Counted from the stretch's first letter, positions 2,944 through 44,220 are shown. The stretch is DNA of 64,000 nt from Shigella phage Sf22 (MF158045), one strand, 5' to 3'. Notes: generated by a model not told the origin, from the letters alone. Numbers and translations: made by a program.

Positions 2944-5040
2944 TTATCCTTGAACGAACTTGTAAGGCATGTTTGTAATATCTATGCAAGACGCAATAAT
3001 TCCAAGAGATGATTCTACTTTCTGTTTAACATTTGATGAAACAAATGATGCAAAGTCAACTCTGTCTTCTATTTCAATATCACCTGTCATTGCAACTACT
3101 TCGCCAGTTTCCATTAAACGGTCACCGTCATAAATTACCGATTCGGTGAGTTCTTCGGTGGTCATAACTTCAGCTTGAATGAGTTTTGTATTATTAGACG
3201 TGGTTCCGTCATTATTAGAAGCATCAGTTATTTTATTAACTTTGACCATCAATCCGCGCGGTAGAATAACTTCGGCTTCTGTTGCTATTCCGAGACTTCC
3301 TGGATATACAACATTAACTTTATGAGCTCCATCAATTGCCCATCCTATTTGAACTTTAACGTATTCAGGATTTTCTTTATACGCTCTTATTTCGTTTGGA
3401 TTAATAGTTATTCCTTCTTCATTTTTATCAACTGTTAATTCATTGCGAGCTTCTGGTTCTAAAAGACCAATACCAGCATGTGTAATTCCAAAACGTCCAA
3501 AAATGATAGGAGTTAAAGAAGTAGATACAAAATTTCTGAAATAGAACACTTTATTTTTAACTAGTGCTTCGTATATAGGAGCAGTCATACTTTGAGCACG
3601 ATAAACTGTAATGCCTTCCGGTATACGGTCACCATTTTCAAAAGCTGAATCTAAATTATTTATAGCAGATTCAATTTCTTTTTCACTCATTATATCATAT
3701 CGTTCTGGATTGTAACGACCTAAAAGAAGATTATTGATGTCTGTATATCCTGAACCACAATACTCTCTAATGCCGCGCTTTTGTGATGGAGTATATTTAG
3801 AACCATCACGGGCAATAGTAATATCAATCATTGGACCTGCACCAATTCCGGAAAAGCTATAAATCATTCGTTTGAGGAATTTAGTTTTTGCTGCATTCCA
3901 GGCATTTTTAGTTATTTCTCCCCAGACTTCATCTGGTTGCCCTTTACGAGTTTTATTATGTTTATCAAGCCAATTATCTTTATATTCTTCAAAGAATTTA
4001 TTAACAGCTGCTGCGTATTTCTCTAAACATTTTATTGAAGTAGTTGGTTCATTTTTGATTGCGTTAAAAATTACATCTTTAATTTTTTCGGAAACTTCAT
4101 CAACCTCACTTTTTGAAAAGAATTTATAGTCATAGTGAAGTTCATTCGCAGTTCCTTCGGCAATAATTTTTGCTGCCTTAGTTTTAGAAGCTAATGAATT
4201 AATTCCAAGCTTCATTTCTTCTGCTTCGGGAATTAAAGGAGCGGTAGCAGGTTTATTGAAATTAGCTGCGGTAGATTCATACTTCTGGAATAATTCACTT
4301 TCAAATCTAGAAGACTCTAACGATTGACTTTGTGCAATTGCTCTACGGGAAATTTTAACTTTAACGATTACAGCTTGGTCAGAACGTTTATCGTTTTCTT
4401 GTGCAATAGATGCTGCAATTGCCTCATTTTTAGTTACTTGAGCCCCAGTATCTTTATTGATATAAACATCACCGACCTTCGATTCAACTTTAGTAAAGAG
4501 CTCGGTACTAATTTCCGGAACTCCTGGAATGTCTTCTAGTGATACATTTTTGCGATGTATAAGAATATATGCATACTTTTTATCATAATCCCAGAGTTCC
4601 TTAAGAAGGACGTATCTGCCACCTGAACGACTACGGATAAGTCTATCAGCAATAACTTGAATTTGTCGAGCTTGACCAGCGGTTTTAGACTTAAGAATAC
4701 GGAGCATACAGGCATCAATTTTATACTGACGCATTGTTTGCATTGCAACAGTAAAAACTGAATTGATATAATTAATTGGGCTTGGACCAAGACCTTTTAA
4801 TTTAGCAATTGAACCTTTAGCAGTTAATGTAAAAGGAACAATATGCATCATTTTATCGCCCATCTTTAAATCGCGATTAGTATCACCTCCAGATGTATAG
4901 GTACATAAACGAAAGCCTGGCTGTTCAATTGCATCATCAACGTGAACTGAAAAAATTTGCGGTATTTTCTTCTTTGGATTTAAGTTTGTAATCGGAAGAG
5001 TAGTATCTTCGTCAAATAATTCTGTAATAAGTTCCATCAT
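2944..5040 (-). CDS. alt: Alt-family mono-ADP-ribosyltransferase, paralog B (698 aa)
   Basis: First ~230 aa closely similar to paralog A; central region diverged; catalytic motifs retained (VYRAQ, FVSTS, TEAEVILPRG). Which copy is the T4 alt orthologue cannot be decided without alignment. Confidence 0.85.
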   Translation of the reverse strand: MMELITELFDEDTTLPITNLNPKKKIPQIFSVHVDDAIEQPGFRLCTYTSGGDTNRDLKMGDKMMHIVPFTLTAKGSIAKLKGLGPSPINYINSVFTVAMQTMRQYKIDACMLRILKSKTAGQARQIQVIADRLIRSRSGGRYVLLKELWDYDKKYAYILIHRKNVSLEDIPGVPEISTELFTKVESKVGDVYINKDTGAQVTKNEAIAASIAQENDKRSDQAVIVKVKISRRAIAQSQSLESSRFESELFQKYESTAANFNKPATAPLIPEAEEMKLGINSLASKTKAAKIIAEGTANELHYDYKFFSKSEVDEVSEKIKDVIFNAIKNEPTTSIKCLEKYAAAVNKFFEEYKDNWLDKHNKTRKGQPDEVWGEITKNAWNAAKTKFLKRMIYSFSGIGAGPMIDITIARDGSKYTPSQKRGIREYCGSGYTDINNLLLGRYNPERYDIMSEKEIESAINNLDSAFENGDRIPEGITVYRAQSMTAPIYEALVKNKVFYFRNFVSTSLTPIIFGRFGITHAGIGLLEPEARNELTVDKNEEGITINPNEIRAYKENPEYVKVQIGWAIDGAHKVNVVYPGSLGIATEAEVILPRGLMVKVNKITDASNNDGTTSNNTKLIQAEVMTTEELTESVIYDGDRLMETGEVVAMTGDIEIEDRVDFASFVSSNVKQKVESSLGIIASCIDITNMPYKFVQG

Positions 5041-39891: not shown

Positions 39892-40164
39892 TTATTTGTT
39901 CGTATACATCTCTAGATATCGATATACACCCTCAAAACCCTCGTTGAATTCGTCGATGAGGGTTTTCTTATCTTCTTGAGTTAATTCAGAAACAATTTTA
40001 CGGAATGAATTCTGATTTAATTTTCTACCTTCATGCGTTACTCCAATCTCATTCAGAAATGCAATAAAATTAGCACGATTCTCAACAATATCTTCTCTGG
40101 AAAATTTAATCAAAATAGACGCAACAGTAATAATTTCACGAACTGTATCAATGTTTTTATTCAT
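39892..40164 (-). CDS. asiA: Anti-sigma70 factor
   Basis: 90 aa, MNKNIDTVREIITVASILIKFSREDIVENRANFIAFLNEIGVTHEGRKLNQNSF... matches recalled T4 AsiA. Confidence 0.93.
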   Translation of the reverse strand: MNKNIDTVREIITVASILIKFSREDIVENRANFIAFLNEIGVTHEGRKLNQNSFRKIVSELTQEDKKTLIDEFNEGFEGVYRYLEMYTNK

Positions 40165-40325
40165 TAACTATACCACTCAATTAGTTGACTTTGTTATAAT
40201 ATCATCAGACGCTTGATTTGTAAACTGGTCTGTGTTATTTTCTTCAAAAATTTTTTCTACGAATTCTTTGAACGACTCACGTTCCTGAGCTACATTATGC
40301 TCAATTACCATTTCAAGATTATGAC

Positions 40326-40604
40326 TCATTCGAAATAATCTTCAATTTCGTAATCATGGACATAAATCATTATAGTTTTTAATACATCATCGATACTTTT
40401 TCCTGGAGCTGGAATTACGTAAAAATATCCTGCTTTTGAGAGGTCTTTATAAGTTCCAATCAAGAAATCATTATTCTCGAGATGTAGTTCTTCAACTAAT
40501 TCATTGACAATTGAGTGGTATAAATTTGGTAGAAACTTATATAGCTTTTCTAGAATATCAATTTTGATTGTATATTGAACCACGGATTGAGAATCAATAA
40601 TCAT
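40326..40604 (-). CDS. arn: Anti-restriction protein (inhibitor of McrBC)
   Basis: 92 aa acidic protein at the T4 arn position. Confidence 0.8.
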   Translation of the reverse strand: MIIDSQSVVQYTIKIDILEKLYKFLPNLYHSIVNELVEELHLENNDFLIGTYKDLSKAGYFYVIPAPGKSIDDVLKTIMIYVHDYEIEDYFE

Positions 40605-40687
40605 AGACCTTCCCCTTATGTTTCTGTTTGCGATTAGATTCTTTAAACGCTTTCTTCTTATCCTTATGAACAGAAGCTTTATTAAAA

Positions 40688-40906
40688 TTATGTTTTGCGA
40701 CTAAATTGTTCATAGTGCTGAATTACCTCTCTTAAACATTTGCGTGTGAATGAAAACTTTTTAGCTACACCACATTCAAATATATGTTCTCTTAAATCAC
40801 GTGTATCGGTATATCCCATCTCAACAATAAAATGCCGTATTAAATTTTTATCTTTATCATTGAGAGAATTAAAATAGTCAGATTTTGAATTAATTTCCCT
40901 GGCCAA
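40688..40906 (-). CDS. Hypothetical protein (72 aa)
   Basis: ORF track. Confidence 0.45.
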   Translation of the reverse strand: MAREINSKSDYFNSLNDKDKNLIRHFIVEMGYTDTRDLREHIFECGVAKKFSFTRKCLREVIQHYEQFSRKT

Positions 40907-41186
40907 ATTGAATCACCTTCAGTTGACGTTTTAATTCTTTTATCATTTCTTCGTTCATCGCAATATAAAGATCGCGTAAAGCAGGTTTTAGCATTCCATT
41001 TATTGGAGAACTAAATGGACATACATAATCTTTTCCTACGAGCTTTTTGGTGAATTCCATATTACAGAACTTAAATCCCGGTTCATTGGCATAAATTCCC
41101 CAATTAGTTGACATCATTTTATTGGCATATTCCAATGCCTGGATTTGATTCATAATTCCATCAATTTGAAACTTTTTAATATTCAT
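40890..41186 (-). CDS. Hypothetical protein (98 aa)
   Basis: ORF track. Confidence 0.5.
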   Translation of the reverse strand: MNIKKFQIDGIMNQIQALEYANKMMSTNWGIYANEPGFKFCNMEFTKKLVGKDYVCPFSSPINGMLKPALRDLYIAMNEEMIKELKRQLKVIQFGQGN

Positions 41187-41647
41187 TAGTAAAGGTCCTC
41201 AGAGTAAAGTTCTTTTTCACTACCACCGCGTTCAATACGTACTTGTCCGGCGTAAGTTGCAATAATCATTGCTTCTTCACGTGTCCAATAATTACTATAT
41301 TGGTCAATAAACCCTTGGTCATCATCACAAACTTGCTGAGTAACTAATTGAGGTTTAACTACATCTAAAACTTCTGCCATATCTTTAGAATAATGACGAG
41401 CACCTGGAATAATAAGAGTTCGTCCATCTTTTAATTTAAAACGGTTGGCTGCGCAAACAATTCGTCGTTGATATTTTTGATTTTCGTCCCAATATGCAGA
41501 CTGCCAACAGATTTCAGGAACTTCTTTCAGAATATCTTCTTCTGTGCATTTATAACCATGCGCTTTAAATTTTTCAACAAGACTTTCTGGAGTCTCACGA
41601 GATAAAGGAACATTCAACATTTTTAAACGATTAATAAATGGGTTCAT
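41186..41647 (-). CDS. Hypothetical protein (153 aa)
   Basis: ORF track. Confidence 0.5.
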
Positions 41648-41973
41648 TTAAACCATCCTTTAATACGCTGCCACAAAGTTTTCTGTTGAGCTTTGTTAAC
41701 ACCAATTGAGCGAATAACTGGTTGAGATTCCTGGAATTCTTTATAATCAGCAAGGTAAATTTCATAAGCCGCTTGAACAAAAGTACTGATCGCTGCCATA
41801 AAGTTCTTGCGAATTCCCATAGAGGCTTCAGAACCGCCACGGATGATTAAATATTTACCAGTCTTAATCTTTACGATACTTCCAAGATAAGCTCCATGGT
41901 ACCAGATATCCCAACCCTCTTGAGTAGGTTCTGCACAACGACGAAGTTCATTGATAATTTCTAACTTGTTCAT
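41644..41973 (-). CDS. Hypothetical protein (109 aa)
   Basis: ORF track. Confidence 0.5.
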
Positions 41974-41983
41974 TATTTATTCC

Positions 41984-42619
41984 TCACAGTTCAGATGCTA
42001 CAGTGATTACAGCTTCAATGTTTTCTGCTGAACGTTTAATGTCAAGATACACATTACCGTTTTTAGCGATTTTACATGACATTCCGATATCAGTAAATTT
42101 CTGAATATGATGTTCCATCATTTTGTATCCAAAAATTCGCATATTTCCATTATTGTTAATTTCAAAATTACGAATTCCGTGAGTGCGTTTTTCTAAAATA
42201 GCGAGATAGTTACTGCGATAAGTTTCAACCTTTTTAAGAACAAATCCATTTTCATCTAAAAGTTTTAACATGAAGTCTTTATCTTCTTCCATATCAGAAG
42301 TAATCTCACGAGATTTACGAGTTGCTCGTTTTTTCAGCAGTTCCGGAGCATTTTCCTGTGCGTATAAAGTTGCTGCGTTTGAAATAATATCCTGAGCTTC
42401 ACCAGTAATGATTAATCCATCACCAGATTTCTCTACCAGGCCCTTTTTAATCAATACACCAATATTACTATTAACTACTGCGTTACCTAAATCTGGATGC
42501 ACCTCACGAACTTCTGCAGCTGTAATGAAATCTTTCTTAGCAATAGTAATTAAAATCGCAGCAGTTTTTTCATTCAGAACATCGTTAGAAGCTTTGATGA
42601 TGTAAGTTACTTTAGACAT
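41984..42619 (-). CDS. motA: Middle-transcription activator
   Basis: 211 aa, MSKVTYIIKASNDVLNEKTAAILITIAKKDFITAAEVREVHPDLGNAVVNS... matches recalled T4 MotA. Confidence 0.93.
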   Translation of the reverse strand: MSKVTYIIKASNDVLNEKTAAILITIAKKDFITAAEVREVHPDLGNAVVNSNIGVLIKKGLVEKSGDGLIITGEAQDIISNAATLYAQENAPELLKKRATRKSREITSDMEEDKDFMLKLLDENGFVLKKVETYRSNYLAILEKRTHGIRNFEINNNGNMRIFGYKMMEHHIQKFTDIGMSCKIAKNGNVYLDIKRSAENIEAVITVASEL

Positions 42620-42656
42620 TTTCTAATCTCCGTAATTCTGTATCAGTAGTTGATAG

Positions 42657-42689
42657 TTGTATAGTACCACAGTATGCTTTGGTTGTAAA
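42657..42689 (-). promoter_or_regulatory. Early promoter for motA (GTTTAC -35, TG-extended TACTAT -10, AT-rich UP element)
   Basis: Minus strand AAAATTTTTTTCACAAAACGGTTTAC-N18-TACTATAC then leader CAACTACTGATACAG...GGAG...ATG. Confidence 0.5.
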
Positions 42690-42700
42690 CCGTTTTGTGA

Positions 42701-42730
42701 AAAAAATTTAAAATAAAAAGGGAGAGCCGA
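42701..42730 (-). terminator. Rho-independent terminator (GGGAGAGCC-GA-GGCTCTCCC + T-run)
   Basis: Perfect 9-bp stem followed by TTTTTATTTT on minus strand. Confidence 0.6.
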
Positions 42731-42745
42731 GGCTCTCCCTAAAAA

Positions 42746-42895
42746 TTACTGCATGACTGTGATAACTGTCATGATAACACGTTGAATTCCGAACGCAAGA
42801 AGACCTCCTGCTACGGCTGGAACAACGCCTAAACCCGCCAGTAAAATGCTACCAGATACTAATGCCGCGCTTGTAATACCTATGAATGGACTCAT
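42746..42895 (-). CDS. Small hydrophobic protein (49 aa) between 52 and motA
   Basis: MSPFIGITSAALVSGSILLAGLGVVPAVAGGLLAFGIQRVIMTVITVMQ; below the ORF-track size cut-off; start overlaps the gene 52 stop. Confidence 0.5.
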   Translation of the reverse strand: MSPFIGITSAALVSGSILLAGLGVVPAVAGGLLAFGIQRVIMTVITVMQ

Positions 42896-44220
42896 TTGAT
42901 TTCCTCTAAATCTTTGGTGTATTCTGTAACTACATCAGTAGTTTTCCAATATTCGTTTTCTTCTTTTTTAGCTTTAGCTTCTTCTGCAAGTTTCTTTGCT
43001 TCGTCGGAAGTCATATGAAAAATATTCATTCCGACTAGTTTATCAACATAAGAAGAATACATCTCAATTTTAGAAAGTTCTTCAGTCAGTTCTTTACGAG
43101 TTTTACCCTGTACAACAATTTCACCTGAAATTACTTTCTTAATGAAATGTGCCTTGGCAAAGGCTAAACGAAATGCTGATTCAGTTTCTTTAATTTTGTT
43201 ATCAATTCGTTTTTGGACATAAGTTTTACGAACTTCAACAAAGTCTTTAATTAAATCAACTACGTTATCGTAAACTTGTAGCTTTCCTTTCTCATTAATG
43301 ACTGTAATATTTTGGGAACGACGCTCAATCAACCCGAAGTCTTTCATAATTTTTGCATGGCGTTCTTCTTCGTTATCGCTCAAAGAATATTCTTTACGGA
43401 ATTTAACTTTGAATCCAAACCCGTGCTCACCGCAAGCATCATCCCATGTAATGAAGCCTTTATCTTCAAGCGGGTCTAAGATTTTACTCACATAAGTTTC
43501 ACGATCATACTTATACGGAATCTCGGTGATATGCATTTGAGTTCGTGAAGTAAACTTATATGTTCCACGAATTTCATATTGCCCATCAATTTCAACGACT
43601 TCACCACGAAATTCTGGGAATTCTACCTTCGGTTTAGTTACTTTCTTTCCTTGAAGAGCTTGCAGTACAGCTTTCTTAACAGAAGAAACACTATGAGGAA
43701 GAATGTAAGTTGCATAACCAGTTGCAATACCGGAAACACCATTAAGAAGAACAGTAGGAATAATAGGCAAATAGAAAGCAGGCGGAATGTGTTCTTTATC
43801 TTGATGTACCGGAGCATATTCAGTATCTTTATATACGTTATAGAAATTTTTACTTACACGAGCAAAAATATAACGACTTGCCGCTGCCTTTTGGACAGTA
43901 CGAGAACCAAAGTTTCCTTGACCATCTAACAGAGGAAAGTTATTATTCCAAGTATTAGCCATCAAAGCACCTGCATCTTGTGCAGAGTTTTCGCCATGGT
44001 GATATCCAAGGTCCGCTACACCGCCTGCAATAGAAGCGAGTTTGTGAAACTTATCTTTATTTCCTCGTGCCAAATCAAGAGCTCGAGCAATAACAAATCG
44101 TTGAACTGGCTTAAATCCGTCAATCATATTTGGGATAGCACGATTTTCAACCGTGTACATAGCATAAGCCAGTGCTTCATTATCAATGATACTTTTTAAA
44201 TCGCGATTATTCAGTTGCAT
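42892..44220 (-). CDS. 52: DNA topoisomerase II medium subunit
   Basis: 442 aa, MQLNNRDLKSIIDNEALAYAMYTVENRAIP... with GyrA/ParC-like motif; matches recalled T4 gp52. Confidence 0.95.
   Translation of the reverse strand: MQLNNRDLKSIIDNEALAYAMYTVENRAIPNMIDGFKPVQRFVIARALDLARGNKDKFHKLASIAGGVADLGYHHGENSAQDAGALMANTWNNNFPLLDGQGNFGSRTVQKAAASRYIFARVSKNFYNVYKDTEYAPVHQDKEHIPPAFYLPIIPTVLLNGVSGIATGYATYILPHSVSSVKKAVLQALQGKKVTKPKVEFPEFRGEVVEIDGQYEIRGTYKFTSRTQMHITEIPYKYDRETYVSKILDPLEDKGFITWDDACGEHGFGFKVKFRKEYSLSDNEEERHAKIMKDFGLIERRSQNITVINEKGKLQVYDNVVDLIKDFVEVRKTYVQKRIDNKIKETESAFRLAFAKAHFIKKVISGEIVVQGKTRKELTEELSKIEMYSSYVDKLVGMNIFHMTSDEAKKLAEEAKAKKEENEYWKTTDVVTEYTKDLEEIK

Follow-up and report, generated by a model that had tools for sequence, protein, structure and literature searches.

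The 64,000-nucleotide (nt) stretch of Shigella phage Sf22 DNA (MF158045) analysed here, which we call the window, carries five small open reading frames (ORFs) on its minus strand between arn and motA. Arn is a DNA mimic that inhibits McrBC, and it is also reported to bind H-NS. The gene order is motA, arn.4, arn.3, arn.2, arn.1, a 39-amino-acid (aa) ORF, arn, asiA.1 and asiA, and the flanking proteins are AsiA, AsiA.1, Arn and MotA, the last with both of its domains. The first of the five ORFs, arn.4 (41644-41973), encodes 109 aa with an isoelectric point (pI) of 9.6. It is followed by arn.3 (41186-41647; 153 aa, pI 5.3), by arn.2 (40890-41186; 98 aa, pI 9.2), whose 3′ end holds a published ArcZ pairing site, and by the long form of arn.1 (40688-40906; 72 aa from a TTG start). 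Last comes a gene for a 39-aa basic micro-protein (40594-40713; ATG start, pI 10.2) that is RB32ORF249c-like and falls in Pfam DUF7230 and phrog_1359. Neighbouring genes overlap by 1-26 nt or lie about 10 nt apart, and all five starts have a Shine-Dalgarno-like motif 3-11 nt upstream (GAGGA, AAGGA, GAGGA, AAGGTGA and AGAGGT). On balance, we read the block as five separate small, early, translationally coupled host-takeover accessory proteins, not as one system.

The region is the arn.4-arn.3-arn.2-arn.1-39-aa ORF segment of the T-even pre-replicative operon, in synteny with T4. Bases 40100-42700 share 99.5% identity with Enterobacteria phage Kha5h and match 839 phage records, T4-like almost throughout. 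T4 arn.1-arn.4 (NP_049869-NP_049872) and RB32ORF249c are the same genes, in the same order, on the same strand and between the same flanks (arn and motA). Identity to T4 by tblastn is 97% for arn.1 (in the 72-aa frame), 96% for arn.2, 98% for arn.3, 87% for arn.4 and 100% for the 39-aa ORF. None of them is new: T4 carries them as conserved hypothetical genes, although its annotation gives arn.1 as 43 aa and leaves the 39-aa ORF out; the window has 72 aa and 39 aa. A preliminary description of this DNA had placed ORFs of 72, 98, 153 and 109 aa between arn and motA, along with a possible basic ORF of 39 aa. All of them are present at those sizes on the minus strand, and the smallest proved to be under purifying selection.

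Indeed, all five ORFs are real protein-coding genes under purifying selection. In Nei-Gojobori counts against 10-17 diverged T4-like loci, the proportion of synonymous differences (pS) was saturated across the block at 0.5-1.2, while the proportion of nonsynonymous differences (pN) stayed low: 0.05-0.20 for the 39-aa ORF, 0.04-0.45 for arn.4, 0.06-0.38 for arn.3, 0.17-0.34 for arn.1 and 0.24-0.47 for arn.2. For comparison, pN in the same loci was 0.14-0.33 for AsiA and 0.23-0.45 for MotA.

Arn.4 is the member of the block that can be tied to experimental data, as it is the orthologue of the elongasome-modulating peptide Emp (PF26821), the Gp94 protein of Mosigvirus AV110. A September 2026 preprint describes Emp as an early protein of 109 aa and 12.74 kDa, encoded beside a MotA-like gene. 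In that work it causes growth arrest, lemon-shaped cells and mislocalised peptidoglycan synthesis, and its effect is partly rescued by MreB, MreD or MreBCD. Its two-hybrid partners are MreB and, more weakly, MreC and MreD, and Gp94 is the sole growth-inhibitory gene of its AV110 region (bioRxiv 10.64898/2026.09.14.751387). In the AV110 genome (OR352940, an accession taken from PMC10844046), the coding sequence (CDS) adjacent to motA, WPK33936, encodes 109 aa with a mass of 12.74 kDa, matching the preprint's Emp. The Arn.4 of the window is 77% identical to WPK33936 over 109/109 residues (E=2e-66). The AlphaFold 2 (AF2) model of Arn.4, with a predicted local distance difference test (pLDDT) score of 82, has a helix at residues 3-13, five strands at 14-55, helices at 58-83, a disordered or low-confidence stretch at 84-99 and a final helix at 100-107. 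This agrees with the topology that the preprint gives for Emp, an N-terminal helix, five antiparallel strands and two helices with a flexible linker. The same length, mass and MotA adjacency, the sequence identity and the shared predicted topology together identify Arn.4 with Emp.

Homologues of Arn.4 were found in T4-like phages only, with a usual length of 109 aa. A fold search with Arn.4 gave marginal matches only, to proteins of unknown or unrelated function. The C-terminal helix is kept in orthologues down to about 32% identity and has a hydrophobic moment of 0.59. By analogy with Emp, Arn.4 of Sf22 may bind MreB, MreC and MreD and alter cell shape. It would probably be membrane-bound via the conserved C-terminal amphipathic helix, K-[ST]-L-W-Q-[KR]-I-K-G-[WF]-F-K. 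The activity of Emp is host takeover, not anti-defence.

T4 itself departs from this pattern. The T4 reference (NC_000866; about 4955-4957 of locus L002) has ATA at the arn.4 start, where the window (41971-41973), Kha5h and other T4-like phages have an intact ATG. The ATA codon accounts for the 68-aa arn.4 annotation in T4. The T4 reference is probably a natural arn.4 start-codon mutant, and laboratory T4 would then make hardly any full-length Arn.4, or none at all. As a corollary, laboratory T4 may be naturally Emp-deficient.

The 39-aa ORF shows the strongest constraint in the block, with pN below that of both AsiA and MotA in the same loci. It matches Pfam DUF7230 (PF23876) over residues 2-35 with 44.9 bits, against a cut-off of 27 (E=1.2e-11), and it is found in 1,217 phage records, as a single copy in each; no paralogue occurs in the 64-kb window. 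Every T4-like locus examined has it, including those that lack arn, asiA.1, arn.1 or arn.2, and it is among the most conserved small genes of T4-like phages. Across genera, 17 of its 39 residues are invariant (M1, N3, V5, A6, K7, F10, N11, H16, K17, K20, S26, R28, K29, K31, H32, K33 and G34). The ORF is annotated in RB32, Kha5h (as similar to RB32ORF249c) and other phages. T4 encodes a 39-aa protein 100% identical to that of the window (NC_000866; locus L002, 3584-3700, minus strand), yet RefSeq does not annotate it. Its conservation, higher than for either AsiA or MotA, suggests a host partner that is itself highly conserved, and this lysine-rich peptide may bind a highly conserved polyanionic or acidic host target. 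An ArfA-like identity was considered and rejected: hhalign against E. coli ArfA gave a probability of 0.4%, and no Protein Data Bank (PDB) chain was matched at E<=10 with either the single sequence or a profile.

Arn.3 belongs to the broadest family of the five genes. A word-indexed search returned 156 relatives, a profile search of 1.84 billion representatives returned 3,148 at E<=1e-3, and tblastn found Arn.3 in 1,581 phage records. Its carriers include Straboviridae, Ackermannviridae (Kuttervirus), phages of about 149 kb that infect Cronobacter and Klebsiella, and Pseudomonas jumbo phages. Outside phages it was seen on one plasmid and in three of about 185,000 bacterial species genomes, all three metagenome-assembled; the bacterial count is a lower bound, as that scan used narrow peptide patterns. 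This near-absence from plasmids and bacterial genomes speaks against a link to plasmid anti-defence islands. The protein consists of a variable helical N-terminal part (about residues 1-45) and a conserved C-terminal domain of about 95-110 aa (phrog_839 / PF26092), which is often the entire protein in relatives. Arn.3 and all 105 diverse relatives tested are members of this family, which itself has no assigned function, so membership is uninformative.

The residues of the Arn.3 domain say more. H85, G112, F113, R123, L147 and E150 are invariant in 105/105 diverse members, R84 and S149 are each present in 104/105, and Q111, D115 and Q135 are nearly invariant. C65 varies among the 105 members (Cys in 74, Ser in 13, Ala in 10 and Thr in 7), which argues against a cysteine nucleophile. 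Judged by residue chemistry, Arn.3 could be a domain for a phosphate-containing ligand such as a nucleotide, a cyclic nucleotide or a nucleic-acid end, acting as a small enzyme or a binder. The ligand site would be formed by R84-H85, R123, S149-E150, Q111 and D115, and the protein would be non-toxic to the host. A fold search with the confidently predicted AlphaFold model found no PDB relative. The N-terminal fusion partners of Arn.3 relatives carry no Pfam domain and no annotated PHROG, and 39 non-T4 loci show no conserved neighbours beyond lineage-level synteny. In Salmonella phage allotria (Kuttervirus; locus L086, 2369-2782), a gene for a gp52-like topoisomerase II subunit is followed, after two small ORFs and about 640 nt further downstream, by the Arn.3 homologue, an arrangement that echoes the T4 order 52 - motA.1 - motA - arn.4 - arn.3. 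This homologue is labelled 'C-N hydrolase superfamily', and our searches give that label no support.

Close relatives of Arn.2 are confined to Tequatrovirus, but by tblastn its orthologues extend across T4-like genera at 34-66% identity. Apart from coiled-coil noise, searches of Pfam and the PDB with Arn.2 gave nothing. Arn.1 and Arn.2 may be small helical binders.

Across the block, scans of the five proteins with Pfam, NCBIfam and PADLOC produced DUF7230, for the 39-aa ORF, as the sole result. Matches to Prok-E2_B, Nif11 leader, PD-T4-9_B, REase_II and Cache were short and below threshold, and were rejected. PADLOC defence-system components gave no significant match, the hits spanning just 25-31 residues (E about 3e-3 to 4e-3). 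Sequence and profile searches of the PDB with Arn.2, Arn.3, Arn.4, the 39-aa ORF and their family profiles found nothing at E < 0.1, and fold searches with Arn.3 and Arn.4 revealed no adequate similarity to solved structures of anti-defence proteins. The arn.1-arn.4 products match PHROG families, three of them of unknown function and one, phrog_4452 (arn.1), labelled 'anti-restriction nuclease'. Recent Pfam entries exist for the block as precomputed accessions only (PF26092, PF26821 and PF26819). The preliminary description had found no recognisable motif in these ORFs, which is borne out for arn.1-arn.4, apart from these family accessions, and does not stand for the 39-aa ORF. Motif, profile and fold searches assigned no function to them, and no clear homology to housekeeping proteins appeared. 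The 'anti-restriction nuclease' label is widely attached to arn.1-arn.4 in GenBank and UniRef. It is a name copied from arn, with no supporting data. Literature searches on the gene names, the Pfam and PHROG identifiers and genome-wide screens in T4 led only to bioRxiv 10.64898/2026.06.19.733364 and bioRxiv 10.64898/2026.09.14.751387.

The block is pre-replicative and is co-transcribed with motA, arn and asiA. In T2, a single transcript spans arn.4 to arn (bioRxiv 10.64898/2026.06.19.733364), and the T4 homologues are treated as early-expressed in the AV110 preprint (bioRxiv 10.64898/2026.09.14.751387). In the window, a sigma-70-type promoter-like site (42661-42689, minus strand; TTTACA-17-TACTAT with an extended -10 TG), which is a consensus match only, stands upstream of motA, and no terminator-like site was found on the minus strand from motA through asiA. 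The transcript, the early expression, the promoter-like site and the uninterrupted path to asiA together place the five genes in this operon.

Within that operon, the five proteins appear to act independently, each on a different host target. This is suggested by the occurrence of Arn.3 alone in Ackermannviridae, in 142-153-kb phages and in jumbo phages, where it has no recurring neighbour, and by the persistence of the 39-aa ORF where arn, arn.1 or arn.2 is missing. Several points weigh against reading the block as a set of host-takeover proteins. By consecutive GenBank protein identifiers, WPK33936 would be CDS 91, and the preprint numbers its gene Gp94. Since the preprint states no accession and the numbers 91 and 94 do not match, the identification of WPK33936 as Emp depends on length, mass and MotA adjacency. 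The Emp data come from one unreviewed preprint, on an orthologue that is 77% identical (bioRxiv 10.64898/2026.09.14.751387). Given the ATA start in T4, full-length Arn.4 is evidently dispensable in the laboratory. The ligand and activity suggested for Arn.3 derive from conserved-residue chemistry only, fold and profile searches gave no supporting match, and the targets suggested for the 39-aa ORF, Arn.1 and Arn.2 derive from composition and conservation only.

Alternatively, the ORFs could be anti-defence proteins, each countering an immune system as Arn counters McrBC. A counter-defence idea for these genes is already in print (bioRxiv 10.64898/2026.06.19.733364). The preliminary description had likewise proposed them as new anti-defence candidates on account of their host-takeover neighbourhood. 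The ORFs do share a pre-replicative host-takeover operon with motA, arn and asiA, and co-transcription with arn itself favours the idea. The AV110 orthologues of Arn.3 (84% identical) and Arn.2 (41% identical), which by position are gp93 and gp92, are not growth-inhibitory, because Gp94 is reported as the only growth-inhibitory gene of that region; this fits an anti-defence role and is no demonstration of one. The phage-centred distribution of Arn.3 described above, confined to virulent phages but for the plasmid and the three bacterial genomes, also agrees with it. Foldseek searches of BFVD with Arn.3 gave weak matches to three 'Large polyvalent protein associated domain' proteins (E 7e-3 to 9e-2, 20-24% identity), a class linked to counter-defence; no Pfam LPD match was found in Arn.3 family members or their fusion partners. 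Finally, the 39-aa ORF is followed by a variable slot, which is what one expects of an arms-race locus. However, Arn.4, the sole member with experimental data (through Emp), points away from anti-defence, and we consider it unlikely that the ORFs as a group have this role. The candidates are not new, being T4 arn.1-arn.4, and the Emp data contradict the proposal for Arn.4. For Arn.1, Arn.2, Arn.3 and the 39-aa ORF it is a reasonable one, and the analysis turned up evidence neither for nor against it.

A narrower alternative concerns Arn.3, which could be an enzyme of nucleotide metabolism or nucleic-acid processing that serves phage replication or RNA repair, and so neither anti-defence nor takeover. 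Its invariant Arg/His/Glu/Ser set would suit such an enzyme. A Kuttervirus homologue is encoded beside topoisomerase II, a Tk.4-like gene, an exonuclease and QueC, and in T4-like phages arn.3 is two to three genes from topoisomerase gene 52. Among the homologues, one carries the label 'putative polynucleotide kinase' and two the label 'C-N hydrolase superfamily'. These labels are unsupported, as the 105 members have no CN_hydrolase or kinase Pfam match, and we rejected a C-N hydrolase (nitrilase) identity on that ground, on the lack of conservation of C65 and on the domain size of about 95 aa. Nor does Arn.3 have a recurring neighbour across lineages or a fold match to known enzymes. That Arn.3 serves phage replication or RNA repair as an enzyme of this kind is quite improbable.

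The start of arn.1 bears on how much of the block is coding. T4 annotates arn.1 as the C-terminal 43 aa from an internal ATG, leaving 161591-161673 unannotated. Orthologues from other genera have ATG where the window has TTG, several of them have Leu at the internal Met used in T4, and AV110 annotates arn.1 as 74 aa. The invariant Arn.1 motif Y11-F12-N13-S14-x-N16 falls within the 29 residues that T4 omits, and the 29 codons for these residues show a pN of 0.19-0.37 against a pS of 0.57-1.2, a synonymous excess like that of the rest of arn.1. A strong Shine-Dalgarno sequence, AAGGTGA, stands 5 nt ahead of the TTG; at the internal ATG there is just GAG, immediately next to the codon. Given the ATG at that position elsewhere, the 74-aa AV110 annotation, the motif and the coding-type substitution pattern, sequence comparison shows that the 72-aa TTG form is the real arn.1 protein and that the T4 annotation is truncated.

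This affects a published regulatory site. An ArcZ-arn.2 interaction has been described in T2, with pairing at arn.2 +285 to +294; the 70 nt after the pairing site were called intergenic, and an RNase E site was placed in them 11 nt before the arn.1 ATG (bioRxiv 10.64898/2026.06.19.733364). The window carries this pairing site, CCAGGGAAAT (complementary to ArcZ AUUUCCCUGG), at 40893-40902 on the minus strand, and these same bases are nt +5 to +14 of the long arn.1 ORF. We confirmed the ArcZ 3′ sequence beside arcB in 5,417 E. coli genomes. The pairing motif occurs in only nine of 85 loci, all Tequatrovirus-type. GCATT, the RNase E motif located 11 nt before the internal ATG, is part of the arn.1 coding sequence. 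With arn.1 corrected to 72 aa, the ArcZ site falls in the arn.1 initiation region, and the published intergenic region is coding sequence. That the block is instead partly non-coding, with a regulatory intergenic region from arn.2 to the internal ATG and a 39-aa ORF that is a chance frame, would accord with the T4 RefSeq annotation and with the preprint's placing of an RNase E site in 70 intergenic nt just after the ArcZ pairing, but is extremely improbable in view of the evidence for the long arn.1 form, the 17 invariant residues and saturated synonymous sites of the 39-aa ORF, an RNA fold at the arn.2/arn.1 junction no more stable than shuffled sequence (z = -0.29) and the lack of any Rfam family above threshold.

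The neighbouring genes and features can be listed briefly. Upstream, motA (41984-42619, minus strand; Pfam MotA_activ and MotCF) is the first gene of the co-oriented block. A strong terminator-like hairpin (42719-42740, minus strand; 9 bp with 6 GC pairs, then a T-run) immediately precedes the promoter-like site, and the two separate the gene 52/motA.1 unit from the motA-arn-asiA unit. A search of 40000-43000 for the MotA box (Mot-box) gave no match. Inside motA, a match to the eukaryotic Rfam element REN-SRE (42266-42302, minus strand) scored 24.4 bits against a gathering score of 41 and is almost certainly due to chance. Downstream, arn (40326-40604, minus strand; 92 aa) belongs to the same operon and matches Pfam DM_Arn at E=4e-54.

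Genera described as lacking Arn encode an acidic protein (pI 4.1-4.5, 88-99 aa) directly downstream of the 39-aa ORF or, in L022, one gene further. Examples are AV110 WPK33931 (L082, 19037-19336), L010 (3860-4141), L022 (3994-4272), L026 (3779-4057) and L037 (3632-3898). These proteins end in the (D/E)-x-x-EDY-type tail of Arn, and hhalign against Arn gave a probability of 77% (E=2e-5) over 76 columns; they are probably diverged Arn homologues. The AsiA.1 homologues keep a constant N-terminal MSHNLE(N/S), and their C-terminal part varies greatly in length (52-112 aa; L010, 4152-4310; L013, 3839-4003; L022, 4269-4607; L023, 3930-4268; L031, 4550-4816). This suggests that AsiA.1 is made of a conserved N-terminal module and a variable body.

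Four of these five genes, in the best-studied of phages, are still without a known function. The present analysis adds the link between Arn.4 and Emp, the arn.4 start mutation of T4, the 72-aa arn.1, the constrained 39-aa gene and a set of Arn.3 residues for mutagenesis. The overall picture of T4 biology is unchanged. Arn.3 and the 39-aa peptide hold the most promise for new biology. It is tempting to speculate, although we think it doubtful, that Arn.3 is a small enzyme or nucleotide sponge that has no solved fold relative and is spread over more than 1,500 virulent phages of at least three families, with an Arg-His / Arg / Ser-Glu site that would degrade or sequester an immune signal of the host or the end of a nucleic acid, and that, separately, the 39-aa peptide is a universal Tevenvirinae inhibitor of a conserved host machine.

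Set beside known systems, Arn.1-4 share with Arn an operon, a similar size and early expression, and have no sequence relationship to it. Arn is acidic, whereas Arn.1, Arn.2, Arn.4 and the 39-aa ORF product are basic (pI 9.0-10.2). MreB, MreC and MreD binding, lemon-shaped cells and growth arrest are described in the preprint for AV110 Gp94 alone, and Emp shares its target and a similar morphology with T7 Gp0.6 and the E. coli toxin CbtA (YeeV), both of which are MreB-binding growth inhibitors (bioRxiv 10.64898/2026.09.14.751387).

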